A stretch of DNA of 58,682 nucleotides from a virus, in IMG/VR virus record IMGVR_UViG_3300026178_000071. One strand, written 5' to 3'. The notes beneath the pieces were generated by a model. The model did no database searches. It worked only from the letters and a program-made list of their open reading frames with translations, and was not told the origin of the DNA. Of the stretch, positions 10,259 to 57,145 are shown one piece after another (position 1 is the first letter of the stretch; every line of letters begins with the position of its first letter). Position numbers and translations under genes: made by a program.

Positions 10259-10287
10259 ATACTACCACTGTAGGTAAGTACTGTCAA
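10259..10287 (-). promoter_or_regulatory. Sigma70-type early-left promoter: TTGACA - 17 nt - TAGTAT
   Basis: Minus strand -35 at 10287-10282 and -10 at 10264-10259. A second TTGACA at 10321-10316 has a weaker TACTCA -10. Confidence 0.6.
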
Positions 10288-10384: not shown

Positions 10385-10570
10385 ATGGACAAACAAACCG
10401 GGCAGGAACGGGACATACTCCCGGCGCTCTCAGTGACAGACGTTGCGATGTTACTGACGGCTTGCGGTAGTAGCCGGGACCGGGCTATCATTCTCTGCCT
10501 GCTCGATTCGGGGATGCGCGCGGCGGAGTTCTGCGCGCTCGATGTGGCCGACTACGACTTGATAACTTGA
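10385..10570 (+). pseudogene. Truncated tyrosine recombinase (integrase) fragment, 61 codons
   Basis: LSVTDVAMLLTACGSSRDRAIILCLLDSGMRAAEFCALDVADYD matches the start of the catalytic domain, including the first catalytic Arg box. The Lys, HxxR and Tyr boxes are absent, and a stop follows at 10568-10570. Confidence 0.5.
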
Positions 10571-10596
10571 CAGTGTAAAGAGAAGCGTTGTACACT
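10567..10596 (+). promoter_or_regulatory. Sigma70-type promoter TTGACA - 18 nt - TACACT, with an embedded inverted repeat AGTGTA-N13-TACACT
   Basis: -35 at 10567-10572 overlaps the stop of the integrase fragment. -10 at 10591-10596. AGGAGG lies at 10603-10608 and the ATG at 10613. Confidence 0.6.
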
Positions 10597-10612
10597 CCCA
10601 TCAGGAGGTACG

Positions 10613-11029
10613 ATGCCAGACGAGAGAACGCCATGTCAACGCGCGGCCCTGATCGCCTATTGGTTCGGTCAGGGTGAAGGTCTCACCCGTTCCCAAATCC
10701 GCAAACTAAGCGGAATGTCACGGTTTGGCACGAGTCGCTTGTTGAAAGCCCTGCAAGGTGTCCTAGACATACGCCAGGACGACGAAGGGGTTTGGTCGTC
10801 TCATTACGACAAGCCGTCGCTTCCGCTCACGTCTCGCCAGCGTGCCGCGCTCATCGGATACGAGTTTGCCACAAAGGGCGAAGCCAGAACCAGCGACTTC
10901 GCAAGGCGATGGGGCATGAGTCGCCACACGATCTATCAAATGCTCTCTAGCCTCTCCATCGTCCTGCCGATCTACTACGACGAGCACAGCCGGACTTGGA
11001 AGGTACTCGACCTGCGTGAGTTAGACTAA
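10613..11029 (+). CDS. Tandem winged-HTH regulator (internal duplication); candidate repressor or switch protein
   Basis: There are two repeats: QRAALIAYWFGQGEGLTRSQIRKLSGMSRFGTSRLLKAL and RQRAALIGYEFATKGEARTSDFARRWGMSRHTIYQMLSSL. It is the only intact rightward gene in this region. Confidence 0.55.
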   Translation: MPDERTPCQRAALIAYWFGQGEGLTRSQIRKLSGMSRFGTSRLLKALQGVLDIRQDDEGVWSSHYDKPSLPLTSRQRAALIGYEFATKGEARTSDFARRWGMSRHTIYQMLSSLSIVLPIYYDEHSRTWKVLDLRELD

Positions 11030-11248
11030 CTTGTAAGCCGCGGCTGCGCGCCCGCTGGTTCTGCGCCGCCCGACCTCGATCACCCGGCCCGCAGCAATGG
11101 CCCGCGCAATGGCGGGCTTGGCTTGGTTGTAGCTGATGCCGTGCAGGTCCGCAAACTGCTGGCACGTAAACTCGTCATCGGCCAGCGCCGGGACGATGTA
11201 TTCCCGGCCCACCCGTAACAGCATCTCCCGTGCTTCTGTTTCTGTCAT
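11021..11248 (-). CDS. Small wHTH-like protein, last gene of the accessory operon
   Basis: FTCQQFADLHGISYNQAKPAIARAIAAGRVIEVG. ATGA overlap with the upstream gene. It converges on and overlaps the regulator gene by 9 nt. Confidence 0.45.
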   Translation of the reverse strand: MTETEAREMLLRVGREYIVPALADDEFTCQQFADLHGISYNQAKPAIARAIAAGRVIEVGRRRTSGRAAAAYKLV

Positions 11249-12114
11249 AGTTCCTCAACTTGATCTTGTTCAATGGTGATGCGCCAGTCGTTATGCTCCG
11301 TCACCTTGCCGTCCGCGGCGACCTCAAACACCAGCATACCAACGTTTGAGAGGGCGAACGGGGCAACCATGTGTACAAAGCTGTCCTTGACCTTCCAGGC
11401 TGGTGCGATGTAGCCGGTCACAGCTACGTTGCCGTCCGCCCGGTACGCATCGCGCCGCAGATACTCGTGGTGGTGCGCGGTGATGACGTAGCGCGGCGGT
11501 TGTTTGCCGGACTCCAGGGCGATGTCGTACAGCGATTTGAGCCATGCTGTGAATGAGTTGCCCTTGGTGTGGTTGCGGTTGCCCGGTCCCGAACCGGGCT
11601 TGTGGGTGAAGTCGAACCTCGTGCCGTTGACGGACAACTGCAAGATGTTGCTGGACGCGCGGGTGCTGTCCTGGGGGTCCAGACCCAACACGGCACGGGC
11701 TACCCGCTCCATGCTCTGCCCGTCCTGACCGTCATGGGGGTCGGACCCGCTCACAAACCTGATGCTGTCCCCCTTAGCGGGGTTGAACTTGGCGATCTGT
11801 AGGCCAGACTCAATTACGGCCACGGCCATCGCCTCCTGTGTGTCGATGCGGGAGATTACTGTTTGCGTCGAGCCGTGGTGCTGGCCCTCGACCACATCGC
11901 CATCTACCACGACGATAAGACGCGCACCCCGGCGCATCATGCGGATACGCTGCCAGCAATGGACATAGTGCTCTAGGATTTGGTGTTGCAGTTCGTTGAG
12001 GGGTAGTTCGTTGCCTTCCGGCCTGCGCCAACGGGCGGGCGCGAGCGCGAACGGACTACCTTGATGGAGGTCGTTGACGACCACAATCAGGGCTTTGTCG
12101 GGCGGTTGTGTCAT
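11245..12114 (-). CDS. Calcineurin-like metallophosphoesterase
   Basis: VVVNDLHQGS (DxH), VVVDGDVVEG (GDxx), SGSDPHDG (GNHD-like) and ITAHHHEY (His cluster) appear in canonical order. Confidence 0.55.
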   Translation of the reverse strand: MTQPPDKALIVVVNDLHQGSPFALAPARWRRPEGNELPLNELQHQILEHYVHCWQRIRMMRRGARLIVVVDGDVVEGQHHGSTQTVISRIDTQEAMAVAVIESGLQIAKFNPAKGDSIRFVSGSDPHDGQDGQSMERVARAVLGLDPQDSTRASSNILQLSVNGTRFDFTHKPGSGPGNRNHTKGNSFTAWLKSLYDIALESGKQPPRYVITAHHHEYLRRDAYRADGNVAVTGYIAPAWKVKDSFVHMVAPFALSNVGMLVFEVAADGKVTEHNDWRITIEQDQVEEL

Positions 12115-12117
12115 GGT

Positions 12118-12819
12118 TCAACCCGCAAACAGGTTGTAGAGCCACGGCGCAAGTAGAACCGCCATGATTAGGGCCACCGTCAGGGGTACGTAAAGCCGTT
12201 GCTGCGTGCTTTTCCGCCACTCCTTTACGTCCCGTTCGATGGAGTCTAACTGCGCTTTCATGCTGCCGATCTCCTTTGTAACGTAGGCGAGACAGTCGTC
12301 AATCTCGCCGTGTGTTGCCATGTCGCCGTTGATGAGGACGGGCGTGTTTACTTCGTCGGGGTACAGTCGGCCAAGCGTGACGATTGCCCGGTCATATGAC
12401 TCCCTGACCTTGCTTGTCTGCTGGTAGGCCCGGTAGAACGTCTCGGCAAACCGCTTCGCCGCATCGTCGCCAATCTCGGAATCATGCGCGATGATGGGGA
12501 CGTGTAGTTCGTTGTGGAGCGCCGTGCCGACCCTGAGCGAGTCACAAGCGTTGATGAAGATAAACCGCAGCCGGGTTTGATCTGCGCACATGCTGGTCAA
12601 GTCAGCCTCGTCCAGGGGGCCGTCCGCGAGTTCGAGCACGCCCTTGCCACCATGTCCGGCAAAGTGCATGGCGTCCCATTTCTCGCTCTTGATGACCCGC
12701 GTCAAGCCCGCCCGGTCTATCGAGCCGTTGACCACTTCTGGCCGGGTGCCGCTGACGATACGGGTTAGTTCGGTGTTGGTGTCCAGGTTCGAGCGGGGAG
12801 CGATAAAGAGTGTTCGCAT
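12118..12819 (-). CDS. Caspase-fold (CHAT/C14-like) protease with C-terminal coiled coil and TM anchor
   Basis: His box DAMHFAGHGG and Cys box RFIFINACDSL about 45 aa apart. The C-terminus has KAQLDSIERDVKEWRK followed by LYVPLTVALIMAVLLAPWLYNLF. Confidence 0.55.
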   Translation of the reverse strand: MRTLFIAPRSNLDTNTELTRIVSGTRPEVVNGSIDRAGLTRVIKSEKWDAMHFAGHGGKGVLELADGPLDEADLTSMCADQTRLRFIFINACDSLRVGTALHNELHVPIIAHDSEIGDDAAKRFAETFYRAYQQTSKVRESYDRAIVTLGRLYPDEVNTPVLINGDMATHGEIDDCLAYVTKEIGSMKAQLDSIERDVKEWRKSTQQRLYVPLTVALIMAVLLAPWLYNLFAG

Positions 12820-13199
12820 CAGTCCTCCCCCGTTCCGCTGCCTGCGGGAGATGTAGGCGAACCCTCTACCAGTGGCGTGCGTGTGGCGTCCGGCGTGTTG
12901 TCCGGCAGCGGCGTGCGCGTGCCGTAGACTCCGGTCGCGGTGGGGGTGAAGGTCGGCGGCAGCGTCGGCGTGATCGTGGCTGATGCCGCAATCGTCATGG
13001 TCGGCGTGACGGTCGCCGTGTTGGTGGCCGTCGCGGGTATGGCTGTGTTCGTGGCCGCAGGCGTGATAGTCGCCGTGGCGTCCTCGAACAGCAAGCCGTC
13101 AAAGGTGCGCGCCGGTTCCCGTTCGGTCATTTGACCGATAAGCCAGATGCCTAACAATACCGCACACCCCACAATCAGGAGTGTGACCAGCTTCTTCAT
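12819..13199 (-). CDS. Thr/Pro-rich envelope protein with N-terminal signal-anchor or lipoprotein signal
   Basis: MKKLVTLLIVGCAVLLGIWLIG, then TATITPAATNTAIPATATNTATVTPTMTIAASATITPTLPPTFTPTATG. Its stop overlaps the CHAT-like start by 1 nt. Confidence 0.5.
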   Translation of the reverse strand: MKKLVTLLIVGCAVLLGIWLIGQMTEREPARTFDGLLFEDATATITPAATNTAIPATATNTATVTPTMTIAASATITPTLPPTFTPTATGVYGTRTPLPDNTPDATRTPLVEGSPTSPAGSGTGED

Positions 13200-13219
13200 A
13201 AGTGCCCCTTTCGTTGCAA

Positions 13220-13247
13220 ATTATACCACTCTGCTTACTGGTGTCAA
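13220..13247 (-). promoter_or_regulatory. Sigma70-type promoter TTGACA - 16 nt - TATAAT (TGg extended -10)
   Basis: Minus strand -35 at 13247-13242 and -10 at 13225-13220, 20 nt upstream of ATG 13199. Confidence 0.65.
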
Positions 13248-13257
13248 TTGTGCTTAC

Positions 13258-13782
13258 TCACGCAGCGTTCGCTACCCCGCGCTCCACGAAAACTTTGAGT
13301 CGCCCATCGACCCAGGCTTGATACAGGTCATGTTCCCAGGCGTCCCATAGCCTATAGCCCTTGGACCGTAGCCGCTCCGCTGATACAAGGTCGCTCCGCT
13401 TGCGTTCCGGCAGCGAATGCCAATAATCGCCCTGAACCCTGACCAGTACCCGTTGCCCGCCGAAGTACACCAGGAAGTCCACGATTGCGCCGCCGACTCG
13501 CAGCCGTCCACCGTCCTCGCTGCGCTGCCACTGGAATATATAGCCCAACCAGACCAGCGCCAGGGCGACCATGATCTCCGGCAATGTGCCGGCCAGTGGA
13601 ATGAGGGCCTGCTTGTCGGTGCTCAACTGGCTGATAGCCTGCATGACCTCGGCGTAGATGCGTTCGTAGTTCAGGCTTTTGCTGATCTTGGTCTTGACGC
13701 CCTTGGGCTTACCCCCTGGTAGGGGCAGCTTGCGCGCCTTGCCACCCAACTTCTTGAACGCCTTGCCCAAGGTCACGGTCAT
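13258..13782 (-). CDS. Vsr/DUF559-like endonuclease-fold protein with Lys-rich N-terminus and a hydrophobic segment
   Basis: IVDFLVYFGGQRVLVRVQGDYWHSLPERKRSDLVSAERLRSKGYRLWDAWEHDL matches the Vsr-like pattern. The N-terminus is MTVTLGKAFKKLGGKARKLPLPGGKPKGVKTK. The start is taken at ATG 13782. Confidence 0.55.
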   Translation of the reverse strand: MTVTLGKAFKKLGGKARKLPLPGGKPKGVKTKISKSLNYERIYAEVMQAISQLSTDKQALIPLAGTLPEIMVALALVWLGYIFQWQRSEDGGRLRVGGAIVDFLVYFGGQRVLVRVQGDYWHSLPERKRSDLVSAERLRSKGYRLWDAWEHDLYQAWVDGRLKVFVERGVANAA

Positions 13783-13818
13783 GGTTGTGCCTCTACAGTA
13801 AGATTGCAATTGTCAAAA

Positions 13819-16191
13819 TTAGATTTCCTGCAAGCGGACCACGGCGAGCATGACGCCCTTATCGCCCGCCTCGTTCATCACGTCCGGCATCTCGGAGATG
13901 GAGTAGTCCACGATGTGCACCGTGCGTTCCGTGCCATACCACGCATGATGCGTGATAGGTTCTTTCGCCTCTCGCAGCGTTTGCAGGTCGGCCAACTGTT
14001 GCGCCAGATTGCGGGTGTACAGCACGCCATTACGATTTTCCTGCCAGTCGGCCAGCTTGAACGCGCGGGTGAAGGAGCGCACATCTTCCGGTCGTTCCAT
14101 GTACTTGACAACCAGGGCTTCCACGGTCGGCGTGAACTCGGTCTCCGCGCCGTTGGTCAACACAATCTTCAACTGGCACTTGTGGCTGTGCGAGCCAGCC
14201 GGGAAGGTGAACTCCGCAAGTCCCTCGCCTGCCGCCTGCGTCGTGCCGACCTGTTTCCACGCGGCGTTCTCGTTCTCCCGCCAGTACAGCGTAATCGTGC
14301 CGCTGCCCGTGCTGTTCGAGGTATCCGTCATGGACACGTACGCGGTAATCCAGTCCTTCTCAATCGTGCGGATATTGCCGTCGAACCAGGACGTAAGGAG
14401 ATACCCCTCGTCGGCGTACTCCACGTTCGGGACAAGCCAGCGCCGGGCCGTGTCGGTCGGCAGTTCCAACCACTTGACGAGCATACCGTCGCCAATCCAT
14501 AGCCGGGGTTGCTCGCCGTACCAGCCGGGTTCCAGACACATGCCCCGCATCATGTGCGACTCAACGCCCTCGAACGCCGCGAGCGGATGCCAGTGGCCTT
14601 CAGCGTAGGACAGCAACACGGAAGCGCCGATGTCGCTGATAGTCCACATGTCCGCGCCACTGTTGTAGTAGTCCACCGTGCCAGCTTCGCCCAGGACGTA
14701 GAGCGTGCTGAGCGTTGACACCGCTGCCCGGTAGGTCAGCCGCTTGTTGGCCGTGACGTTTAGGCCCGTGTCAGGACTGATGGATTGCAGGACGTTGCCG
14801 ACCGTGTAGCGCATTATGCCGTTGCCGATGTTGAAGTAGAGATCGCCCAGGTGTACGACCATGAATGAGAAGTTGGCCGCGTCAGCCAGCGAGAGAAAGT
14901 CCACGATCTTCTGGCACGTCAGCGACCCCGTGACCGGGTAGCCTGCCGGGACCGTGATCTTGTACAGACCATCGTCCTTGCCGACCCATACCGACCCGTT
15001 CCACGAGACGATGTTCCGTATCTGGTAAGTCCGGTCGCCCACCTTGGCGGAGGAATTGCCCCAGGTCGCACCGTTGTAGAAGTCAACCTCATGCCTGTTG
15101 TAGCCGTAGGCGAGCAGGCTGTCATGCACGCACAGCGCGGTGGCGTAGTGATTGGCGGGCGATGTGATATTCTCCCAGGTCTCAGTTCCGCCAACGTCGC
15201 CGTCGAAGCGCGCTATTGGCACGTCATCACCCAGGCCCAAATACAAATAGGCGTGTGTGTCGGACGGTCCCCGATACCACGCATGGGCCACAATGTCACC
15301 CGGCAGGAGCGGTTGACTGAGAACCGGCGTTGGCGTCGTGCTGTTGCCGACGTAGTACAGCGTGCGCCCCGACCGCAGCCACACCCGCATGATGCCGTCC
15401 TCGCCCGCCCCGATGAAGGGCACTACCGGCGAGTCGGGCCGGTCAAGGTAGTCATCGGCCCAAAACGTGAAGCGTGCCCCGTCGTGCGCGGTCCAGCCGC
15501 CGACCGACCAGTAAGCCGCCTCCGTCGCACCCGTCACCTCTTCAATCGCCCACCACGCCTTCACCGTGTCCACGCTCTCCACGCTTATCCAGTACGAGAC
15601 ATTCGCCGTCACCGCCAGCACCGCCGTGAGCGCAGCGCAGACCCATTGCCCGTGCGCTTTGAGTGTGCCCGCGGGTATCGTCGCAGTAGCGAGCACCGTC
15701 CCAGGGAGGTTGCCAACGTTGTCGTAAATCTTGACGTTGATTGTGCCTAGCCCCTGGTCGCCACGCATGTACAACCACACGGCCCGCAAGTTGGTCATGC
15801 CGGTCGGGGTGTCAAACTTCTGCGCCACCCCCGGCCTACCCGATGAGATCGACATAAAAGATGACGGGGTGAAGGTATGGGGGAAAAGGGTAGTGGTTGC
15901 GGTGAGGCGCGGACCCAGGACGATACGCCCGCCGCGCGTGTCCACGTTGTAGCTGTTGAGGAACATCGTGGGGTCCGTCAGTCGCTCTTGGCCCATACCG
16001 CCCGTGAAGTCGGACATTGCCAACATCGCAATGGCGTCGTAGTCCGCGTACGAGCGGTCGCCCGTGGTGGACTTGGGAGCAAAGGGCGACGATGACACGT
16101 TACTGAGCGTGCCCGGCTTGGCGAGCATGAAGGGGTAACGCTGGCCCTCATGCACGAACCATTCATCGTGTGTAACGTATTCGCCGCTCAT
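13819..16191 (-). CDS. Large virion tail protein (790 aa), function unassigned
   Basis: ATG 16191 overlaps the stop of the fibre gene (ATGA). The call rests on size and position at the distal end of the late block; no motif was recognised. Confidence 0.45.
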
Positions 16192-19103
16192 ATGAAGTAC
16201 CCCCAAATGCGCAAGTAAATGCTCATGCTATCCGCTGCGCTGCAAACGCGCCGCATGTAGATGTCGCCGTTGGCGTCACACGGTACGAAGCCGTTCGTGT
16301 CCGCGTAGATGGTTGACGATATACACCTGACCGTGAGCGCGTAGTTGTAGGTGGCGCTTGGCCCGATAGCCGCGTAGTAGCTCGGCGTCCCCGCGCTGTC
16401 CTTGACGTGCAGGGAGGCCAAGATTGCCTTGATACCTGCCGGAGCGCCGAACACGGCGGATAGGTCGATCACCTGCGCCGGGTCTTGCGTTGAGAACGCG
16501 TCACCGTCATAGCTCGTGCTCGTCAGCGGGGTGGTCAGCGGCACGAAGATGTAGCCGTTATAGTAGGAGCCGCCTAGATTCTTCTGTAGCGCCCCGGATA
16601 TTTTGGTTTTTGGCGTGTTCAGTTGAATGTAGCCCGAAGCGTCTCCGTTGTTGCTACTTCTGACAGTCAGTTGTGACCAATCGCCTGTGCCAACGTTCTG
16701 GTATCCCTTGCCGGTCAGTACAATCGTTCCATTTTTCGTGCTATTGGTTCCGTACTTGGTCAGGCTAGCAAATAGGCCATCGCCGCCAATCTCGAAGTCA
16801 ACCCCTGACGCGCTTTCCCACTTGATGTAGTTCCATGAGTTTGACCCCGTTTCGATGCTGATGCCGCCAGCGTCCAGCGTGACCGCACCCGCACCCGCAT
16901 ATAGCTTGCCGTCAGTCTGTGCGCGCCACTGGTCTACACCATCGACCTGCCCGACTATCTCCGTGTCGTCAATCTGTATGCCGTCGAGCGTGCTGTCCTT
17001 GGTGCCCGTGCCGATCTTGAAGTAGCCGCCTGAATTGATCGTGACCGCGTGCGCCAGCGCATCACCGAGTAACCCTTGCGCGCCCTGCGGTCCCTGCGCG
17101 CCTTGTGGCCCCGTGGAACCCTGCGCACCTACGGCACCCTGCGCGCCTTGTGGCCCCGTGGAACCCTGCGCACCTACGGCACCCTGCGCACCAACGTTGC
17201 CTTGCGGCCCTTGCGCGCCCTGTAGACCCTGATTACCCTGCGGGCCAGGAGCACCTTGTACGCCCTGTTCGCCGGTCGCGCCCTGGCTTCCTTGTGGTCC
17301 GGTTGCGCCTTGCGCACCTGTTGCGCCTTGATACCCCTGCGGGCCAGTTGGTCCTTGCGCGCCTTGTTCGCCAGTTGCGCCTTGATTACCCTGGTGGCCC
17401 TGGGGACCTTGCGCTCCTGTCGCGCCCTGGTTGCCTTGTGGTCCGGTCGGCCCTTGCGCACCCGTCTCGCCCGTCGCGCCCTGACTACCTTGCGGACCTG
17501 TCGCGCCCTGCGCGCCTGTCGCGCCCTGATACCCTTGTGGCCCGGTCGGACCCTGCGCGCCGGTTGCGCCTGTTGCGCCCTGACTACCTTGCGGACCCGT
17601 CGCGCCCTGCGCACCCGTCTCGCCTTGATCGCCTTGGGGACCGGGAACACCCTGGGGACCGGTTGCGCCCTGGGAACCTTGCGCGCCAGTTGGACCTTGC
17701 GCACCCGTTTCACCTTGCGCACCTACAACACCCTGATTGCCTTGCGCTCCTTGTGGCCCTTGCACACCTTGCGGCCCGGTGTCGCCCTGCGGTCCTGTTG
17801 GCCCGGTGTCACCCTGCACACCTGCCGGACCCTGCACACCTGCCGGACCTTGTGCGCCAGTCGGACCCTGCGCGCCGGTTGCACCTTGACTACCCTGTGC
17901 GCCAGTTGCACCTTGCGCACCTGTTTCGCCTTGCGCTCCTTGTGCACCAGTCGGGCCTTGCGGACCCTGCGCGCCGGGCAAACCCATTTGGGCGAGCAGT
18001 TCCCAATAAATTTCCCAATACGTTCCGCTTCCTGGTTCGCGGTTTGGCGTTGAACTGTGTTCCAGTATGCAGATATAGCTTGACCCGTTATTGATAACGG
18101 CATCATCTACATGGTAAAAGACGCTTTCAACGCTCCACACGCCTTGCCAAGTTATGCCGTCCGGCCCAATCTCCCCGGTTGCGCCCTGGGGACCCTGCGC
18201 CCCTTCCACTCCTTGATTTCCCTGGTAGCCTTGCGCTCCCTCTACGCCCTGTGGCCCTTGTGCTCCGGCCTCACCTGCCGGACCTTGTGCGCCAGTTGCA
18301 CCTTGCGCACCCGTAGCGCCTTGGGAACCGGTTGCACCTTGGGAGCCGGTAGCACCCTGGGAACCTTGTGCGCCTTGTGCTCCGGCGTTTCCTTGTGGTC
18401 CCTGGCTTCCGGTCTCACCCTGCGGTCCGGTTGCGCCCTGTGCACCAGTGACACCCTGCGCGCCTTGTTGCCCCTGCGCGCCGGTCTCTCCCTGGTGGCC
18501 TTGGTGTCCCTGCGCCCCTTGTGGGCCTTGTGGGCCTGCCTCGCCCTGCTGTCCCTGCGGTCCCTGTGCGCCGGTCGCTCCCGTATCGCCCTGGTAGCCT
18601 TGTGCGCCTGCCTCGCCCTGGGGTCCTTGCGCTCCCGCGCTACCCTGTTGACCTTGCGCCCCTTGCGCACCCGTGGAGCCTTGGTAGCCCTGCGCGCCCT
18701 GGTAGCCCGGTTCACCCTGTGGACCCTGCGCACCGTCAATGCCTTGCGCTCCCTGCGCACCCTGCGGCCCCGTCGAACCTTGCGGGCCTTGCGCTCCCTG
18801 GTTGCCCGGTTCACCTTGCGGACCTTGCGCGCCGTCTGCGCCTTGCTGACCTTGATACCCTTGCGGCCCGGTTGAGCCTTGCGCCCCCTGGTAGCCTTGG
18901 TTGCCCTGTACGCCTTGCGGCCCCTGGAAGCCTATCGCTCCCTGGTAGCCTTGCGCGCCGGTGATGCCGGTCGCACCCTGCGCACCTTGCGCGCCGGTAG
19001 CGCCGGTAACGCCCTGCGGCCCCTGGTAGCCTTGCGGTCCCTGGGAGCCGGTTATCTCGTACCAGTCTGTGTCAGTCTCGTTACGTATGCGCAGCACGGG
19101 CAT
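16188..19103 (-). CDS. Collagen-like tail fibre (971 aa)
   Basis: Two uninterrupted G-X-Y tracts (aa 19-316 and 375-680), a 58-aa non-collagen insert, and a 291-aa C-terminal globular domain. Confidence 0.8.
17064..17981 (-). repeat. Collagen tract 2: about 100 G-X-Y triplets, with higher-order duplication
   Basis: Counted from the translation. The segment [27 protein letters not shown] occurs twice. Confidence 0.85.
17982..18155 (-). other. CBM5/12-like carbohydrate-binding insert between the collagen tracts
   Basis: [54 protein letters not shown] fits the W..Y..GD.V.YNG..Y.C...H.S......W pattern. Confidence 0.45.
18156..19049 (-). repeat. Collagen tract 1: about 100 G-X-Y triplets
   Basis: Counted from the translation (aa 19-316). 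Confidence 0.85.
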
Positions 19104-19114
19104 AGGCGGGCCTC

Positions 19115-20386
19115 CTAAATCAAGACCTCGCCCACGGGCCGGTCAGAATAGGGCGGTTTGAGCGCGATCAAATCGGCCTGCACGTAGGGCACGTTACTCT
19201 TGCGGTGTTCCTCGGAGGGGAACCACGTAATCACCCGGCTGTTCTGGAAGCGCCCGGTGTACCACGGCTGAATAAAGCGAGCCATGCGTGCGTCAGTGTA
19301 GTAGGCGAAGCTGTTCTCATTCCAGAACGAGACGTGCGTTGGGTCCTGCCATGCGCCCCGGCCATCGGTGGAAGGCACGTTGATGAAGGCCCAACCCCCA
19401 GGAGCCAGCACCCGATACAGTTCGTTCATGGTGTGAATGGGGTCCGGTAGGTGCTCGATGATGTCCGTAGCGTTGATGACGCCAACCGTGCTATCCTCGA
19501 ACGGCCAGCGTTCGCGTAGGTCGCATTGATGCTTTACGCCCGGTCGCATATCGACCGTCTCGAAGTCCGGCCACGCGTTGTACGCGCCGCCCAGGTCCAG
19601 CTTCAGCAAGCCGTTATCGTTCGCCCACCGTATCGCCAGCGCGCGGGAGTACTTGACGTAGTTGGCTTCGGTCTGCTTCTGTACGGCGTCGTTGTAGACC
19701 CGGCAGGAGTTGTTGTCGTGCACCCGGTAGAGGTACAGACACTCGTCTATGTGCCTGAGTCCCTTGGCCCCGTAGCGGAGGTAGAACCGAATCGCAAGAT
19801 CATGGTCATCGCCCGTTGCCAGCGCCGGGTCATGCCCGCCCACTTCCTTGTACGCGGCGGTGCGCCATGCTCGAACGTGGTCGGGACACCAGAAGATTTG
19901 CCGCATCATGTGCGGGGAGGGTTCCCAGGCGACCATCTCCTTGAGCGCGTGGCCCTGCCAGAAGAAGTCGCGCGACTTCCAACCCCAATACGACGAGTAG
20001 GCCCGCGACTCCCAAGTACCGTCCGTAAACTCGCAATCGTTGGAGTAGACCATTGCGGTCGCCGGGTTCTCGAACGCTTCCGCGATCTTGCGCAGGGACC
20101 ACGGTAACAGCAAGTCGTCAGCGTCAAGCTCGATGAGTACATCTCCGTCTGCCTGCTCGCAAGCAAACCGTTTCAGTCGCCCGATGGAGTTGACCGGCCC
20201 TTCGTCGTCGTGGGTCGGCACGATCTTGACGCGCGGTGCGGCGGCGATCTGCTCAGGTATCTCGCCGCCCCGGTTGGGCACAAGCACCCATTGCCAATCG
20301 GTGTAGTCGTTGGACAGGAGACTCTTGTACGTCTCCAATAGGTACGGTGCTGAGGTCTTGTGAACCGGACTGATGATAGATAGCAA
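19115..20386 (-). CDS. Fusion of a family-2 (GT-A) glycosyltransferase and a class I SAM-methyltransferase-like domain
   Basis: The N-terminal part has LSIISPVH..., DWQWVLVPN and the DxD box ELDADDLL. The C-terminal part has [10 protein letters not shown]...[47 protein letters not shown] start 6 nt after AGGAG. Confidence 0.65.
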
Positions 20387-21511: not shown

Positions 21512-23173
21512 CTAATATCTGAACGCCCGCACGTTGCCCCACTCACCGTCAACGCAGTACAGCACCCATACGTCATCACGGTCGGGGTCACGGAACCGTT
21601 GGGCGATGTACTTCACGCCCTCGACCGTGAGCGGAAACTCGTTGCTCGTCGGCCACAAGCCGCGGGCCTTGCCTGCCTTGCAAAGCGCCGCCTTGGGGTT
21701 GATCTGCAACACGTCCGCCGCTTCCGCTGCGGTGTACAGCGCCCCTTCCAACAGGCCTTTATCGCTGCCGAACAGCACGGCGTAGAGGTTATCGCCGGGG
21801 CAAGCGGTCTCGCTTACGTCCCGGTGGCCCTGCATGTCCAGCGTTCGGCCCAGGTACTTTTCCAGCGTGGACCTCAACAGGGCGAGCGCGTTGAGCGCGG
21901 CGGTTGTCGGCAGGTCGGTCATGTAGTTGCCCATGAAGCTGATGCCGATGGAGTCCGTGTTCGCCGGTCCTGCGTGGTAGCGCCGGGTGTTCACGTCGCC
22001 CAGATAGCGCACGCTGCCGTCCGGCATGATACCGAAGTGGTAGCCCACTCCCGGCCAGCCGTTATGCTCGACGTGGTAACGGGCGACGTTCTCCCAGGTC
22101 GATACCACGGTGGCCGTGTGATGGACGATGATACGCTTGATGACCGACTCTGACCGCACGATGTATTTATCGGTCGGGTGGGTCGGGAGACCGTTGCGGA
22201 AGTCTGCATACTGACCGCCAAACGCAGCTTGTAAGCGCGCGTTGAGGTTGCCGGTCGGCCCGGTCACGGTGAAGGTGCCGGGTTGCGGGAGTCCGTGTGC
22301 GGCGATGCGGTCGAAGAACGGTTGCAGGAAAACTTCCGTCCTGATCTCGAACCGGCCCCAATCGTCCCGGTTGCCGTCATAGGTGTAGGGGAATAACGCC
22401 TTGGTCCGGCCATCTTCCCGCAACAGGTCGGCGTACTGCCACAACTCGTTGAGGTAGCGGTTGGCCTTGTCGTTCATGCTGCCGTCAGGCAGGTCGTACC
22501 AACCCTGCTTGACGTGTCCGGCCCCCAGGACGCCCCCATCAATGCCGCACTCGGTCATCATCATGGGCACGCGGTAAGGGCACTTGAGCGCACGTCCGGC
22601 CCACCAACCCCAATTCTGTAGCGGTCCCTCGAAGCCCCAATACTCATGTAGGCCCAGGTAGTCCCCGTTGCCGAACAGGTTGATAACCGGCTTGAACCAG
22701 TCCCACACGGGCGGGGTGTCCGTGCCGGTGTTTCCCGGCCAGCCTACGCCCAGGTTGCAGACAACACCCCACAGTCCCGCCTTGTGCAAACCGGCGAGCC
22801 GTGCAGCTTCGAGACGGGCGAGACCGTCATAGCCGTGCTGCCATACGGGGAACTCGTTCGGCCCCTCGAACAGCAGCCGGGAGCGGGAGACGCCCTTCGA
22901 CTCGCAGTAAGCCGCCACTTCGACGGCGTTCTGTACGTAGGCTTGCGCAGCCTGTTCCGGCGTGACGGTGCCGAACCCCCCGTGAAACTGCTCGGACAGG
23001 GGGTAGTTGCGCCATACGATCTTGGCATCAGCAGGAATATCTTCCAGGTAGGGCACTTGCGACCCGTCCCATACGATCTTCACGAACGGAGGACGCCAGC
23101 GCGCGAACACGTCCTTGTCGCTCCACGGGCCGATAGTGCCACGATGAATACATATCCAATGCGGACTAATCAT
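21512..23173 (-). CDS. Two-domain lysin: TIM-barrel glycoside-hydrolase-like N-terminus plus N-acetylmuramoyl-L-alanine amidase (amidase_2/PGRP)
   Basis: The GH clan-A-like signature is LFEGPNEFP plus MMTECGIDGG. The amidase signature is IIVHHTA...GWPGVGYHFGI..DG...HAG..N..SIGISF.G...GHRDVSETACPG. Confidence 0.75.
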   Translation of the reverse strand: MISPHWICIHRGTIGPWSDKDVFARWRPPFVKIVWDGSQVPYLEDIPADAKIVWRNYPLSEQFHGGFGTVTPEQAAQAYVQNAVEVAAYCESKGVSRSRLLFEGPNEFPVWQHGYDGLARLEAARLAGLHKAGLWGVVCNLGVGWPGNTGTDTPPVWDWFKPVINLFGNGDYLGLHEYWGFEGPLQNWGWWAGRALKCPYRVPMMMTECGIDGGVLGAGHVKQGWYDLPDGSMNDKANRYLNELWQYADLLREDGRTKALFPYTYDGNRDDWGRFEIRTEVFLQPFFDRIAAHGLPQPGTFTVTGPTGNLNARLQAAFGGQYADFRNGLPTHPTDKYIVRSESVIKRIIVHHTATVVSTWENVARYHVEHNGWPGVGYHFGIMPDGSVRYLGDVNTRRYHAGPANTDSIGISFMGNYMTDLPTTAALNALALLRSTLEKYLGRTLDMQGHRDVSETACPGDNLYAVLFGSDKGLLEGALYTAAEAADVLQINPKAALCKAGKARGLWPTSNEFPLTVEGVKYIAQRFRDPDRDDVWVLYCVDGEWGNVRAFRY

Positions 23174-23658
23174 TACACTCCCCCCTTCATGCGCAGATAC
23201 CTCGCCCGGTCGTATTCTCGCTTCTGTTCGCGGTGAGCGGGTCCGTACTCTGTCACCATGTACCGAAGATTGCGCTCGTTTTTACAAGTCCTGCAATGCC
23301 ATCTACCCCCATAGGTCAGCACGTTGTCAGGTGTCAATGGGTGGCCGCGCTTGCAGACTCCCGTGCGAGCGATGACTACGCTTGGTGAGTTACCCCGGCG
23401 CATGTTGGTTTCCGAATCAACAGCTTCCAGGTGATCTGGCCGAACGCACTTTCGATTACGGCACAAGTGGTCAATCTGTAGGCCAGGAGGAACGGCCCCG
23501 TTGTGATACTCATAGCTCCACCGATGTGCGCCGACATTCCTGCCTTGCCACCAGAAAGAACCATACCCCCAAGAGTCTTTACCGGCTGTCCATTCCCAAC
23601 AGCCGTCCGTCTTGTTCACCTTGGCGAAGAAGCGTTCTACGTCATTGTCAGAGAACAT
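23173..23658 (-). CDS. HNH homing-type endonuclease
   Basis: GCWEWTAGKDSWGYG, AHRWSYEYHNGAVPPGLQIDHLCRNRKCVRPDHLEAV and a CKRGH..CRTC ribbon. I prefer ATG 23658. Confidence 0.8.
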   Translation of the reverse strand: MFSDNDVERFFAKVNKTDGCWEWTAGKDSWGYGSFWWQGRNVGAHRWSYEYHNGAVPPGLQIDHLCRNRKCVRPDHLEAVDSETNMRRGNSPSVVIARTGVCKRGHPLTPDNVLTYGGRWHCRTCKNERNLRYMVTEYGPAHREQKREYDRARYLRMKGGV

Positions 23659-23780
23659 CAGCACTTCCCCTTGCCGGGCTTCTTACCCTTCTTCGCCGGA
23701 CGCTTGGGGGCGGGCTTGTCCTCGTCCATGTCCTTCTTCAACCAGGGAGGCAGGTTCTTCGTCTTGGGCTTGGTTGCCAT
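23658..23780 (-). CDS. Small Lys-rich ORF (40 aa)
   Basis: Not in the ORF track. MATKPKTKNLPPWLKKDMDEDKPAPKRPAKKGKKPGKGKC. An AAGGAG SD lies 9 nt upstream, and its stop overlaps the HNH ATG by 1 nt. Confidence 0.35.
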   Translation of the reverse strand: MATKPKTKNLPPWLKKDMDEDKPAPKRPAKKGKKPGKGKC

Positions 23781-23792
23781 GTGTCATACTCC

Positions 23793-24233
23793 TTATGAGT
23801 TGGTCGATTTGAACAGGTGATACCACTTGTTGCCGAAGCATTGCCACCCGATCATGTCGTACTGTCCGATGGTCGCGGCGTTGCCGTCCGTGGTGTAGAT
23901 GTTGGTGTCTGAGATGGTGATGGTCTGGTTATCGTCGCCGCGCAAGTACAGCAGTTGCCCATCGGCACAGTCTCCGCCAAGCGTCAGCGCGACCGCCCCG
24001 GCAGCACTCAGGTTATAGAAGCTGTGCGTTGGCGTGATAATCATGTTGTTCGTGACCGTCACAGCGGTCGATGACAGCACCAGCTTTTCAGCCGTAACGG
24101 TGTCGCCGGTCAGGGCTACACCCGTGATGCCGCCCGATGCGCGGGATGGCATGTCCACGTTCGGAGTGATGCACGCAGCCAGCAGCACGACGAGCAGCAG
24201 GGCCACGGCTGCGAAGATTGCGATACGTTTCAT
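23793..24233 (-). CDS. Lipoprotein (146 aa) inside the structural block
   Basis: MKRIAIFAAVALLLVVLLAAC|ITPNV has a classical lipobox LAAC followed by hydrophilic sequence. Confidence 0.6.
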   Translation of the reverse strand: MKRIAIFAAVALLLVVLLAACITPNVDMPSRASGGITGVALTGDTVTAEKLVLSSTAVTVTNNMIITPTHSFYNLSAAGAVALTLGGDCADGQLLYLRGDDNQTITISDTNIYTTDGNAATIGQYDMIGWQCFGNKWYHLFKSTNS

Positions 24234-28046: not shown

Positions 28047-31000
28047 TCAGCGCGGCGGCACGGGCGGCGGAGTTGGTATCGCCCCGTAGTCCGTTGGCGG
28101 CGCGGCGCTCGGCGGCACGGGTGGCACGTTCGGCGCGTTGCCGGGTATGCTCGCCAGCAGCGCCGTGTAGTCGGTCTTGACGCCTGTCTGCTTCATCAGC
28201 CACAACAGGTACTTCAACAGGCGCGCCCAAGCCTGCGGGTTCTTGGCAATCCAGGCCGCGCGTTCCTCTGCCGACATGCCGTAGTACTGGTCAGCCAGCG
28301 CCATTGTGTCGGTCCCGAACAGCAAGCCCACGAACGTATCAAAGGCCGGGTCGTCGGTGCGTTCTTCCTGCACCATCCGGCTCAGGTCGGCGGCGGTCCA
28401 CGTCTCGTAGGCGGGCGGTTCGGTCGGCGTGCTCGGTGCGTCCGGCGTAGGTGTGCTTGGCGTACCGTAAGAGCGCCCACCACCGCCATAGCTGCGCCCA
28501 CCGTAGCTTGACTTGCGCGGCGGGTAGAGGGGCACGTAGCGCCCGGTGCTCCCGGTCCTGGTGTCGCCGTAGATGAAGTCATAGTATGCGGACACCTGCG
28601 CCCACTTCTCAGGGTTGGCTTCCCGCCACTTCTTACGGGCGTCCCCCTCCTTGGGGATGCTGCTGTACTCGTCGGCCCACCCTGCGACCTGCGTCCCGAA
28701 CTGCTTCTCGGCAGCGTCATACTTGGCGGAGAGTTCGGATTGTGTGGCCGTGGTCTCCTTGCCCGTCGCCGGGGAGTACTTCTGGTAGGTTGCGCTTGTG
28801 GCCTTGGTGTTGCGGCTGGCCTCCCACCCCGCCTTTAGCCACGGGTATTTGGCAAGCACAGCCTTCTTGTCTGCGCCCTCGGCGTAGTACGCGGCGTTGG
28901 CCTCCCAATATTCCTCGATGGTGTGCCCCGTGGCCTTCTCGATTGCGCTGTATATGGCCTGCTGCTCGACCTTGTACTGCTCGTACTCGGCCTTCTGCGT
29001 CGGTGACGGCACGCCAACCGTTGCGGCCAGCTTCTCTATCGCGGCCTGGAACGCCTTGACCTCGTATGACTTCCACTTGGACAGGTCGCCCTTGTCAGCG
29101 TAGAACCGGCTCATCATTTCCTCGGTCAACCCGGCCTCGGCAAGCGCGGTCTTGCGCTGCGCGCCAGGTGGTAGCCGGTCCAGCACGGAGTAGCCGTAGT
29201 CCTTCAACCGCTCAGCCGGGTCGGTCTCCCGCGCCATACTCACAGCCTTCTTGAATGGGTACTTTTTCTCGAACTCATCGAGCATCTTGCGCCAAGCGGC
29301 TTCGCTCGCGCCCTTGTCACGGGCGTCCCATATCTCGCCCCATTCCTTGTTCATGCGGTCGATCTCGATGTCGCTCATATCGCGGGCCTTGAAGCCAGCA
29401 CCTAACAGGTAGGAACCCAGGTTCCCAGGTGCCCGCTTGACGGCCTCCGCTTGCCGTGCCATGTCCCAGGCTTCCCCGCTCTGCTTGTAAGCGGCGTCCT
29501 GGAACTGTTCCTCAGTGATCTCGCCCGACTTCCACAGCGTGTACAGCGCATACCCGATACGGCGGCGCTCCCAGGTGTCCCCACCCTTGACGTTCTGGAG
29601 GAACAACTGCTCCGGCGTGAAGCCACCCGCGGGAATGACACCCTGCAAGCCGGGGACCGCTTCCCGTGCCAGCGCGGTCGCACCCTTCAGTGCGCGCGAC
29701 CACGGGAACAGGTAGCCCACCCACTCGTCAGAGGCTTCCCGGTAGCCCTGGCTCGACAGCCACGCAGCGTAGGCCCAGGTGATGAGCGGGTGGAGGCTCG
29801 GTCCCCAATTGCCAATCTCCGTCATGGCCTTGCCGCCCGGTGCTTCATTTCTGGTACGGGTCTCGAAGTCGTTGAGCAAGGCTTGCAACGGCATGAGCGT
29901 GCGTTCCAGGTCGAAGTACAGTTGCGTATCGGCAAACGGGACTCTGATCTGATCTTCCCAATACTCCGGCATCTCGGCGTCCTGGTCGTCCATGACGGCT
30001 TTGTAGTACTCCCGGTTGGTCTTGGCAAGCGCCGTCTTGTACCGGGCGTAGTTGCTCACCCAGGACGGATTAGTAGCCAACCGCTGCGCCCAATTCGGGT
30101 AGGTGAACGTGTACCAGTAGGACCACGGCATGATGTAGGCCAGCCACTCGTTTATCATGCGCTTGTCGGCGTAGTCGCCCAGGGCAAAGTTACGCATTTG
30201 CGTAGCAAGGTTGGCGACGGTGGCCTTGTCCCGCACCATGTTCGGAATGATCTTCTTGTTCGCAAGCTCGCGCAGTATGCGGGCTTGGTCGGGTGTGATG
30301 GGTGGCAGCGGGTCAGGCGCGCCGGTCAGTTGGCTCCGCATCTTGGCCCATACGGGTTGCATGGCTCCCGCCGATGCGATGCGTGCGCCGTTCGTGCTCA
30401 TGGCGCTGCGCCCAAAGATGCGGTTGAGTAGCTCTTGCGCCTCCGGCGTGCCGGGTGCGGTAATACCTACGCCCGCGCCTCCGCCCGTGAAGTCAAGCAC
30501 GTCGCCGCCTTTGGTCTCATACGTGCTGATCGGGAACCGCTCAACGAACGCATTGACCTTTTCTTCCGGCACGAACCAGAACGAACCGCGCGGGCTGAAC
30601 TCGGCCCCGGCCTCCATGAGCGGAACCTTGTGGGACATCTTTGCCCCGTCTACCGCGATCATGCCGTCCTGCCGCATACGAAGCATATACTCTGCTCCGC
30701 CACTACCTGATAGCATGACACGATCTCCGGCCCGCAAGTCCTCCATCAGCGTTGCTAGAGAGTGTTGCCGTTGGGCGTTCTTGCCGAACGCCCTGGCTAC
30801 CTCTTGGATATTACCGGGTCTAATTACCAACCCTGAGACATAGCGACCGCTCGCAACGTCGCGCATGTTCATGTATCGTAGGCGCAATGTCTCAAGCGCG
30901 TCGCCGGTCATGCTTTGCACAACCCGCTTGATGCGTGATGCCTCGCCGGTCGGTGTCAGCTTGATAACACCTTCAAGAATACCCATCTTCTCGTTGGCTT

Positions 31001-55246: not shown

Positions 55247-55738
55247 CTACTGCGTGAACTCCCCAATCCACTCAGGTTGCTCTACAACAATGTCATCGCC
55301 ACCCTCAAACGCTTCGGGCGGGAGATCATCACCGCGCGACCGGCGTGCGTACATGCGTTGCTCGTCGCGCGGTGCGGCCCCGGCCATGTACGCCGCGCGG
55401 AAGTACTCAGGGAAAGAGGACGGGTCATACGTCTTGCCGTCACTGAGTTGCAGGGTGCTGCGCATTGGGGGCAAGCCGTGATGAATCTCCCGCACGGTCG
55501 TCGTGCCATTCGTGATCGTGTGCTCGCGCTCGCCGGTTATGTCCTGCTTGCGGTACATGCGGACCACGAAGCCGATGGACACGACCACGATAGCGATTGA
55601 TATGCTGGTGATGAGCGTGCGTGCCAAGGCAAACACGCTCTCCCACCCCATCATAGCCATAGCGACAATGGCCGGAATAGCCATTCCCAGGACGATGACG
55701 AACGGCCATGCCATGCTGCCCGACTTGGTTTCCTGCAT
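55247..55738 (-). CDS. Membrane protein with two TM helices (163 aa)
   Basis: AWPFVIVLGMAIPAIVAMAMMGW and LITSISIAIVVVSIGFVV. Confidence 0.5.
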   Translation of the reverse strand: MQETKSGSMAWPFVIVLGMAIPAIVAMAMMGWESVFALARTLITSISIAIVVVSIGFVVRMYRKQDITGEREHTITNGTTTVREIHHGLPPMRSTLQLSDGKTYDPSSFPEYFRAAYMAGAAPRDEQRMYARRSRGDDLPPEAFEGGDDIVVEQPEWIGEFTQ

Positions 55739-55741
55739 CGG

Positions 55742-57004: not shown

Positions 57005-57011
57005 TCCCACC

Positions 57012-57055
57012 CCCAAACAAAGAGCGCCCGTGCTTTTTGTGGTAAGCACGAGCGC
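57012..57055 (-). terminator. Hairpin plus T-tract on the minus strand just upstream of the FtsK-like gene (attenuator or terminator)
   Basis: 12-bp stem with one mismatch (57024-57035 / 57044-57055), followed on the minus strand by TCTTTGTTTG. Confidence 0.4.
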
Positions 57056-57065
57056 CCTGTATAAT
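57037..57065 (+). promoter_or_regulatory. Plus-strand promoter TTGTGG - 17 nt - TATAAT
   Basis: -35 at 57037-57042 and -10 at 57060-57065. It is embedded in the minus-strand hairpin. Confidence 0.4.
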
Positions 57066-57071
57066 CGCTCT

Positions 57072-57142
57072 CGGTGCCGCGTGCTTGACCACGTTGCGCC
57101 AGCCGGGTAGGTGCCTTCAACACCTACCCGGTTTGTCTGTTT
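57072..57142 (+). ncRNA. Candidate ~70-nt small RNA (promoter plus intrinsic terminator, no ORF)
   Basis: The predicted start lies ~7 nt after the -10 box. The terminator has an 11-bp stem ccgggtaggtg/cacctacccgg (57103-57113 / 57121-57131) followed by tttgtctgttt. Confidence 0.35.
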
Positions 57143-57145
57143 GAC

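Follow-up and report, generated by a model that had tools for sequence, protein, structure and literature searches.

What would a phage do with a caspase-like protease encoded next to a phosphoesterase, and do the two belong to any conflict system described so far? The question is raised by a virus contig of 58,682 nucleotides (nt), IMG/VR record IMGVR_UViG_3300026178_000071, the whole of which is referred to here as the window. Four genes on its minus strand, g1 to g4 (11021-13199), lie 3' of a consensus promoter. An earlier note had described them as a self-contained operon for, in this order, a Thr/Pro-rich exported or anchored protein, a membrane-tethered CHAT/caspase-like protease, a calcineurin-like metallophosphoesterase (MPE) and a small winged helix-turn-helix (wHTH) protein. 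Our comparisons with related phage loci, cited below by L numbers, indicate that the cluster is a composite of a moron-like promoter plus g1 and an older, co-inherited trio, g2-g3-g4. The role that we tentatively favour for it is that of a late-expressed conflict module on the phage side, acting in host takeover, counter-defence or exclusion of competing DNA.

The tight packing reported for the four genes was reproduced. The g1 and g2 frames share one base (TGATG), 3 nt separate g2 from g3, g3 and g4 overlap at ATGA, and g4 converges on a plus-strand gene with an overlap of 9 nt. The promoter, which has a TG extension and had been singled out as the best in the genome, is the only perfect TTGACA-N16-TATAAT match in the 58.7 kb, and 100 shuffled sequences contained none. 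The gene upstream of it stops at 13258, 11 nt from the -35 hexamer, and neither a terminator nor a gap was found between that gene end and the promoter, so that late transcription would be able to read into the cassette.

In a direct Pfam search g2 falls short of the CHAT cutoff (PF12770; 21.7 bits against 24, E = 1.6e-4). A precomputed PF12770 match is present in 10 of its 12 homologues, and the distant CHAT protein of L022 exceeds the cutoff with 27.1 bits. When the search was made with a profile of the g2 family, it reached the SAVED-CHAT protein of Haliangium ochraceum (PDB 8tl0) at E = 2.4e-6, with the His-Cys dyad aligned. The AlphaFold2 (AF2) model of g2 (predicted local distance difference test score, pLDDT, 77.5) retrieved the same structure as its best Foldseek match (E = 3e-9, root-mean-square deviation 3.1-3.5 A over about 190 columns, 20-23% identity); procaspase-3 (2.7e-4), separase (3.4e-4), TPR-CHAT (8.9e-4) and the CHAT domain of DdvA were matched as well. 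By this comparison the model has the caspase-hemoglobinase fold, and both sequence boxes that had suggested it, MHFAGHGG and FINACDS, map onto the fold: His56 follows the strand 50-54 and Cys92 the strand 86-90. The two predicted catalytic residues are invariant in all 12 homologues and align with their counterparts in 8tl0, which are 47 residues apart, exactly as in the published catalytic dyad, H375/C422 (bioRxiv 10.1101/2023.06.23.546230).

The coiled coil and the C-terminal transmembrane (TM) helix proposed for g2 are likewise borne out, the former by a long helix in the model (residues 170-203) and the latter by a hydrophobic helix that follows it and is conserved in all close homologues. 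Four Lys or Arg residues precede the TM helix, and because of them the protease domain is expected, by the positive-inside rule, to be cytoplasmic. As judged from the sequence, g2 should therefore be a tail anchor whose protease domain faces the cytoplasm, probably oligomerised through the coiled coil. The membrane-tethered arrangement holds for the window and its close homologues and not for the distant L022 trio, in which a hydropathy scan of the CHAT protein found no TM helix; the tether is thus not a defining feature.

SAVED-CHAT, which belongs to a type III-B CRISPR/CBASS-like system, is the best match of g2 in both structure and sequence. In contrast to it, g2 is only some half as large, has a coiled coil followed by a TM anchor at its C-terminus, and lies in a phage late operon. 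Neither a fused SAVED or TPR sensor nor Cas or CD-NTase neighbours were found, the neighbours being phage tail and lysogeny genes. Since the SAVED sensor and the CRISPR/CBASS context are both lacking, g2 is a CHAT-fold protease but no member of a SAVED-CHAT system. Two further CHAT folds invite comparison, one membrane-linked (DdvA, a transmembrane anti-sigma factor, PDB 8rw5) and one defence-linked (TPR-CHAT/Csx29, 7zoq). The dyad of the DdvA CHAT domain is reportedly incomplete, whereas that of g2 is kept. The DdvA domain is described as periplasmic (PMC11506125), while that of g2 is predicted to be cytoplasmic; nor does g2 have a TPR region, an anti-sigma domain or a Cas7-11 partner.

Searches of g3 against Pfam, including Metallophos (PF00149), and against PHROG, NCBIfam and PADLOC gave no match; among 48 diverse relatives, four match PF00149 (best E = 4.4e-5). 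The AF2 model of g3 (pLDDT 86.3, predicted template-modelling score 0.88) gave 74 PDB matches at E < 1e-3 in Foldseek, and the best 50 of the 74 are all MPE-fold; PolD DP1, SMPDL3, LpxH, GpdQ, Vps29, Mre11 and SbcD are among the matches. Five motifs occur in order, each at the C-terminal end of a predicted beta-strand (D15-x-H17, G72-D73, G123-S-x-x-H127-D128, H171 and H214-x-H216), and the predicted metal ligands D15, H17, D73, H127, H171, H214 and H216 are kept in the 48 relatives at 25-35% identity. Set against the five metal-binding motifs of MPEs (DxH, GD, GNH[DE], H and GHxH), g3 has motifs I, II, IV and V, and its motif III is without the Asn ligand. The fold and the order of these four motifs are therefore as the earlier note had them, but its "GNHD-like box" is not. 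Both g2 and g3 look catalytically competent.

Three lines of comparison, weak but concordant, suggest that the g3 family is nearest to the DP1 exonucleases of PolD, archaeal MPEs with 3'-5' activity. PolD DP1 is the top Foldseek match of the g3 model (9f29_A, 3e-8) and has the highest query-normalised template-modelling score (TMq 0.56). The NCBIfam models of the PolD small subunit match 7 of the 48 diverse family members (best E = 2.2e-4). Finally, a broad family profile run against PDB sequences placed DP1 in all of the top five positions (E = 0.03-0.4), with three colinear motifs, I (sDxHvGS), II (GDxveG) and V (H-x-H), followed by WQxxTE; single-sequence and narrower-profile searches of the same sequences gave nothing. 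Two of the 48 members also match a PHROG annotated as exonuclease. Unlike DP1 and Mre11/SbcD, g3 is a single domain of 289 amino acids (aa), in which no oligonucleotide-binding (OB) fold was found, and it has no DP2, Rad50 or SbcC partner and no adjacent polymerase gene; its partner is instead a wHTH-type protein of about 80 aa. The nearest role described for a phage MPE is that of Gp48 of mycobacteriophage A10ZJ24, for which damage to host DNA, and thereby subversion of host defence, has been reported (PMC12287305, abstract). Gp48, compared here by its reported role, differs in being expressed early and, as far as that abstract goes, in having no CHAT or wHTH partner.

The partner protein, g4, is small, as the earlier note had it, and basic (isoelectric point 9.0). 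Its matches to AbiEi_4 (E = 0.015, 15.9 bits against a cutoff of 25) and to a Ren-like PHROG (E = 0.019) are weak and below threshold, and a profile of the g4 family found no significant match in the PDB. The name winged-helix, which derives solely from these matches, is used here provisionally, as a working label. A g4-like protein is kept downstream of g3 homologues even in distant loci (2e-5 in L030, 7e-9 in L038).

The genes g2, g3 and g4 recur together in nine phage lineages: the window with L026, L025, L001, L003, L004, L007-9, L010-12, L014/15 and L022/24. CHAT precedes MPE in all nine, and the junctions of the trio are tight or overlapping in eight, L004 having a CHAT-MPE gap of 109 nt. 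The three proteins diverge in parallel, from 73/87/73% identity to the window for CHAT/MPE/wHTH in L025 down to 26/32/21% in L022. The co-occurrence that the earlier note had asked for is thus found for the trio, while g1 is confined to three lineages.

The pair of MPE and wHTH genes has a far wider distribution than the trio. An exhaustive search with the g3 profile collected 1958 clusters at 50% identity (E <= 1e-3), 1146 of them at E <= 1e-10, and among the best 150 family proteins almost every one stands alone and is about 250-320 aa long. The pair often occurs without CHAT, and every context examined is a phage. Its position varies between phages: in L013, L019-21 and L028 it lies between the portal gene and genes for MuF, a protease or the capsid, and neighbouring frames often overlap by their stop and start codons (in L013, L019 and L021 the start codon of the MPE gene shares bases with the portal or MuF stop codon), and in L030, L032, L038 and L039 it stands at the end of tail or lysis genes. 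L038 is a prophage in a contig of an Anaerolinea metagenome-assembled genome (MAG), where no further phage gene stands between the pair and the host genes. The apparent evolutionary core of the module is therefore, on the comparisons made here, the MPE-wHTH pair, with CHAT as an add-on in one part of the family.

A pattern scan of 185,579 species-representative genomes found no close relatives of g3; a distant clade gave six genome matches, three of them in Chloroflexota MAGs, and the readable neighbourhoods were of phage type. Among 50,697 phage records, blastn of the region returned only an irrelevant match of 58 nt, and tblastn returned nothing for g2 and, for g3, a single metagenomic record at 24% identity with an uninformative context. 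L046 is a relative in the phage backbone, having a homologue of the 795-aa tail protein (39% identity over 805 aa) and the Vsr-like gene that adjoins the cassette in the window. No cassette was found in the 6 kb downstream of these backbone genes, and for this reason we regard the cassette as accessory. As a single query against viral contigs, the 795-aa protein found nothing.

Two observations on the surroundings of the pair may be added. In L019 a DNA methyltransferase gene with a DPPY motif lies between the MPE gene and MuF and marks the portal-MuF junction as an accessory hot spot. In the CHAT-free loci L030 and L032 the pair adjoins proteins with HExxH motifs (HEIVH and HELVH); they were considered as alternative protease partners and, having no Pfam support, are left as a remark.

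The first gene was correctly read as a Thr/Pro-rich exported or anchored protein: in a hydropathy scan, residues 1-26 form a TM segment, which is followed by a Thr/Pro-rich stretch. Homologues of g1 were found only in L001 and L025. L001 is almost identical to the window in its promoter, in the ribosome-binding site (RBS) and at the 5' end of g1, despite only 63% identity in CHAT, and in L025 there is no promoter, g1 overlapping the upstream gene; the promoter is missing in most lineages of the trio. For these reasons the promoter and g1 are taken as a separate piece, which behaves in sequence comparison as a recently exchanged, moron-like unit, and the cluster of the window is not the self-contained four-gene operon first proposed. 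Like phage morons and superinfection-exclusion membrane proteins, this unit combines a small anchored protein with a consensus promoter of its own, lies between late genes and a lysogeny module and is exchanged among phages; in contrast to them, its homology is limited to a weak match of g1 to a PHROG annotated as superinfection exclusion (E = 0.012). In L001 an HNH_3 homing-endonuclease gene is inserted exactly between promoter/RBS and g1, with a duplication of the RBS.

In L003, L007, L008 and L014 the slot upstream of CHAT is occupied by N-terminally anchored proteins of 670-1114 aa with the same Thr/Pro-rich ATRTPLP tail. All proteins of the slot have a Thr/Pro-rich tail, repeated xTRTP motifs and a terminal ATRTPL(P), and no Pfam domains were found in the large ones. 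This pattern suggests that a conserved anchor and tail carry an ectodomain that varies, with a surface or exclusion function. Two other ideas about g1 were dropped. That it is a lipoprotein (IVGC, residues 9-12) was rejected, the Cys not being conserved in L025 and the hydrophobic run continuing as a TM helix; that the xTRTP repeats are CHAT cleavage sites was set aside, as g1 and g2 are predicted to be located on opposite sides of the membrane.

None of the four proteins could be assigned to a described system. In PADLOC-DB v2 there was no match for g1, g2 or g3 and only one at E = 0.02 for g4, and the 48 diverse relatives of g3 gave a single stray match (E = 0.0028). Neither PHROG nor Pfam structural, tail, head or assembly families were matched by g1-g4, which speaks against the possibility, allowed for by the earlier note, that they are homologues of tail or assembly proteins. 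No muralytic domain was found in them with Pfam or PHROG, and g1 and g2 have one TM segment each. The pair also differs from AbiE and from type II-IV toxin-antitoxin (TA) systems, in that the small protein is partnered by an MPE and not by a nucleotidyltransferase and the family is nearly absent from bacterial genomes. The arrangement is, as had been supposed, unlike any described system: PADLOC, PHROGs, NCBIfam and the literature searched hold no phage CHAT-MPE-wHTH module, and Pfam gives only weak domain matches.

The window, a tailed-phage genome, has genes for TerL, RecT, a portal protein, a tape-measure-like protein, an Amidase_2 protein, an FtsK-like protein and a fibre. Phages of Thermus, Meiothermus and Halorubrum have the TerL proteins most similar to its own (about 29-34% identity). 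The placement of the cassette between tail genes and a lysogeny module is upheld by L025, which has a full tyrosine integrase and a CI-like repressor just past the convergent gene. In the window only an integrase remnant is left, corresponding to residues 119-207 of the 304-aa enzyme of L025 (57% identity), and no homologue of the CI-like repressor was found; the phage is therefore taken to be a derivative of a temperate one. The cassette is thus located at the junction of late operon and lysogeny module in an ex-temperate, siphovirus-like phage. The uncultured host is possibly a Chloroflexota-like bacterium; no tRNA genes that could have given a hint were found in the window.

The gene on which g4 converges had been called a regulator. 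The convergence is real, and the gene encodes a tandem double-wHTH protein of the phage backbone that is no part of the cassette. Members of this family lie directly upstream of terS in other phages (L013, L019, L020), and the protein may be a regulator of late genes or packaging rather than an immunity repressor. Divergent promoter-like sites flank the integrase remnant (TTGACA-17-TAGTAT with TG, and TTGACA-18-TACACT); one faces a Cro-like 84-aa gene and the other the double-wHTH gene, an arrangement that looks like a leftover genetic switch. In L001 an IS605-type element (Y1 transposase and an OrfB/TnpB-like gene) lies between the double-wHTH gene and the integrase remnant. On the other side of the cassette, the 183-aa protein encoded upstream of the promoter has a Vsr/DUF559-like endonuclease domain (MTES_1575, E = 3.8e-5) and is 89% identical in L025; its gene always follows that of a tail-region protein of about 800 aa in the relatives, including the cassette-free L046 and L048. 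An apparent TM segment in this protein was judged to be a hydrophobic helix of the Vsr/DUF559-type endonuclease fold. The Vsr-like and double-wHTH genes were both rejected as parts of the cassette, as they occur in L046/L048 without it or upstream of terS elsewhere.

Some further genes of the window deserve mention. Between the head and tail genes lies a single open reading frame (ORF) of 4883 codons, a giant tape-measure-like ORF; extremely long tails are a feature of the Thermus phages P23-45 and P74-26. Twelve stretches of collagen triple-helix repeats (Pfam Collagen, E = 3e-96) occur in a 971-aa protein, a probable tail fibre, and directly upstream of its gene a fusion of a family-2 glycosyltransferase and an S-adenosylmethionine (SAM) methyltransferase is encoded, which may glycosylate or modify the fibre. 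A 553-aa protein with a C-terminal Amidase_2 domain is encoded 8-10 kb upstream of the cassette, followed further upstream by an HNH_3 endonuclease gene and the gene of a 146-aa protein whose N-terminal TM segment is very hydrophobic; the amidase and the 146-aa protein may be the real pair of lysin and membrane protein. L022 has the same amidase architecture, with its long N-terminus and an SH3 domain added. Unusual for a tailed phage is a membrane-associated set that resembles a DNA translocase: an FtsK/SpoIIIE-family ATPase gene lies between two small ORFs, each of which has two TM segments.

Table 1. Positions of the cassette genes, of sites within them and of other features mentioned in the text (positions refer to the window unless another locus is named)
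Feature	Position	Strand	Remarks
g1	12819-13199	-	126 aa; N-terminal TM anchor and Thr/Pro-rich region ending in ..DATRTPL.. motif
g2	12118-12819	-	233 aa; CHAT/caspase fold (predicted cysteine protease), coiled coil, C-terminal TM helix
g3	11245-12114	-	289 aa; stand-alone MPE-fold protein
g4	11021-11248	-	75 aa; basic; provisionally wHTH
Consensus sigma-70-type promoter	13220-13247	-	TTGACA-16-TATAAT, TG at -15/-14
g2 His56 codon	12652-12654	-	MHFAGHGG; predicted catalytic His; invariant in 12/12 homologues
g2 Cys92 codon	12544-12546	-	FINACDS; predicted catalytic Cys; invariant in 12/12 homologues
g2 C-terminal TM helix	12121-12198	-	Residues 208-233; hydropathy 2.16; conserved in all close homologues
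g1-slot proteins	12819-13199; L003 1584-4208; L007 4000-6282; L008 2938-6282; L014 5253-7265		Sizes 126 to 1114 aa
Double-wHTH gene	10613-11029	+	Convergent with g4
Double-wHTH family elsewhere	L013 2615-2827; L019 4559-4909; L020 4330-4686		Directly upstream of terS
Integrase remnant	10385-10675	+	
Promoter-like site	10259-10287	-	TTGACA-17-TAGTAT with TG
Promoter-like site	10567-10596	+	TTGACA-18-TACACT
Vsr/DUF559-like gene	13258-13809	-	183 aa
Collagen-repeat protein	16188-19103	-	971 aa
Glycosyltransferase-methyltransferase fusion	19115-20386	-	
Amidase_2 protein	21512-23173	-	553 aa; candidate lysin pair with the 146-aa protein spans 21512-24233
HNH_3 endonuclease gene	23173-23664		
146-aa TM protein	23793-24233		
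Giant tape-measure-like ORF	28047-42698	-	4883 aa
FtsK/SpoIIIE-family ATPase	55742-57049	-	With flanking ORFs, 55247-57466
HNH_3 homing-endonuclease gene	L001 4936-5510		
IS605-type element	L001 8408-9961		
DPPY-motif DNA methyltransferase	L019 8825-9583		
HExxH proteins	L030 7076-7435; L032 4673-5764		

What, then, might the cassette do? A conflict role on the phage side is favoured because the MPE-wHTH pair is coupled to late genes, seen in phage contexts only and accessory, shares a hot spot with a methyltransferase in L019 and has no relationship to families of structure, lysis or known defence. The same genes could instead form a prophage-encoded defence, superinfection-exclusion or abortive, TA-like module expressed in the lysogen from the consensus promoter, with g1 blocking entry, the MPE acting as a toxic nuclease restrained by the wHTH protein, and CHAT releasing or complementing it on infection. 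This would fit the only perfect sigma-70 promoter in the window, the int/cI module that adjoins the cassette in L025 and the place at the prophage edge in L038, as well as an order of toxin and then small HTH gene, with ATGA overlap, that resembles reversed type II TA pairs; the weak similarities of g4 to AbiEi_4 and of g1 to superinfection exclusion would also fit, and conflict systems are recognised to have effectors with caspase-like and MPE domains (PMC8195603). We nevertheless consider it unlikely. The promoter goes with g1 and is missing from most lineages, and the translational coupling of the MPE gene to portal, MuF or tail genes in many phages implies lytic late expression. Unlike TA and defence genes, the family hardly occurs in bacterial genomes other than in phage contexts, PADLOC does not match the cassette, and the window phage has lost cI and most of its integrase while the cassette is intact.

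The earlier note had also raised the possibility that the MPE degrades a nucleotide signal. In this case the MPE would hydrolyse cyclic oligonucleotides or other nucleotide signals of CBASS, type III CRISPR, Pycsar or Thoeris immunity, and the substrate of CHAT would be an immune effector. The MPE fold is shared by class III cyclic-nucleotide phosphodiesterases and GpdQ/SMPDL3-type enzymes, which are among the Foldseek matches, the solved CHAT structure closest to g2 is SAVED-CHAT from a type III-B CRISPR system, activated by cyclic triadenylate (cA3), and the pair occurs in accessory hot spots, by a methyltransferase in L019. No specific support for signal degradation emerged, since neither sequence nor fold prefers cyclic-nucleotide phosphodiesterases over nuclease-type MPEs and the weak affinities point to the latter, such as PolD DP1; it would leave the conserved, apparently DNA-binding-type partner unexplained, late expression comes late for quenching immune signals, and g2 has no SAVED or CARF sensor. 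These points make it distinctly improbable, and we rate just as low a role in the processing of phage DNA, with MPE-wHTH as a late nuclease trimming or debranching replicated DNA for packaging, or being packaged and ejected with it, and CHAT as a lineage-specific accessory. The overlap of the pair with a preceding portal or MuF gene in several phages, the DP1/Mre11/SbcD-type affinities of g3 and the great size and phage-only contexts of the family would suit such a role. It is at odds with the varying position, which in the window and many relatives is after the tail genes and by the lysogeny module, with the absence of the pair from the backbone relative L046, and with the near-absence of the family from the deposited phage genomes. 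A function in lysis, for which g1 and g2 would be holin-, spanin- or lysis-timer-like membrane proteins and the MPE would attack phosphodiesters of the envelope (lipids or teichoic-acid-like polymers), seems to us highly unlikely. The cassette does stand at the end of the late operon, holin-like or single-TM coiled-coil proteins are encoded immediately upstream of the MPE in L028, L032, L037 and L039, an Amidase_2+SH3 lysin gene lies two genes upstream in L022, and LpxH, SMPDL3 and GpdQ are among the fold matches. But g3 has no signal peptide or TM segment and is always paired with a small basic g4-type protein, which lysis would not explain; the CHAT domain is predicted to be cytoplasmic, the window has an amidase and a separate N-terminally anchored protein 8-10 kb upstream, and in L038 and L010 no membrane proteins precede the pair.

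Several points also weigh against a phage-side conflict module as we picture it. The strong promoter, together with the position next to integrase and repressor genes in relatives, would equally fit a defence moron expressed in the lysogen. Membrane or coiled-coil proteins are often encoded just upstream of the MPE in distant loci and could link the pair to lysis, and g4 could be an antitoxin-like inhibitor instead of a targeting subunit. The model of g2 is of moderate confidence only; motif III of g3 reads G-[ST]-x-x-H, without the canonical Asn; the similarity to DP1 is weak (E = 0.03 to 2e-4), and an MPE fold does not by itself determine what is hydrolysed. The host assignment derives from binned MAG contigs.

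If the cassette does act in conflict on the phage side, it would be transcribed with the late genes and, in the window phage, also from its own strong promoter. As a binuclear MPE of the nuclease-type, DP1/Mre11-like branch, g3 would hydrolyse phosphodiester bonds of nucleic acids, most likely at DNA ends, and g4 would be the subunit that directs it to DNA or regulates it. Cleavage of a protein by g2 would take place at the inner membrane face, with either a host factor or part of the module itself as the target. The module would then serve the phage in conflict and neither build virions nor lyse the cell. One could go further and imagine a "caspase-activated nuclease" pathway, in which the tail-anchored CHAT cleaves the wHTH protein or another inhibitor and unleashes the DP1-like MPE late in infection, destroying host or competitor DNA or dismantling membrane-associated immune effectors; in this specific form the idea is a long shot.

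CHAT proteases and MPEs are known as effector domains of bacterial immunity. Here both are encoded by a phage, have no sensor domain and have been inherited together over deep divergence, and the cassette is a new combination of known kinds of enzyme. Phage-borne CHAT proteases are rare, only two viral structures in BFVD matching the fold of g2 at E < 1e-3. The MPE-wHTH family, by contrast, is a very large one in phage contexts that lies outside PHROGs and PADLOC, of which Pfam Metallophos and the NCBIfam PolD models catch a few distant members weakly, and it is essentially absent from cultured phages. A true role in prophage defence would add a new minimal protease-nuclease system. Should the set instead serve counter-defence or host takeover, it would represent a new enzymatic strategy on the phage side of the arms race, and late genes now called "hypothetical", thousands of them in phages whose uncultured hosts are Chloroflexota-like or of other kinds, would thereby receive a function. 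If activation of the nuclease by the caspase-like protease were to prove true, the MPE-wHTH family, with its approximately 2000 clusters, would be a major unrecognised class of phage conflict enzymes in uncultured lineages.

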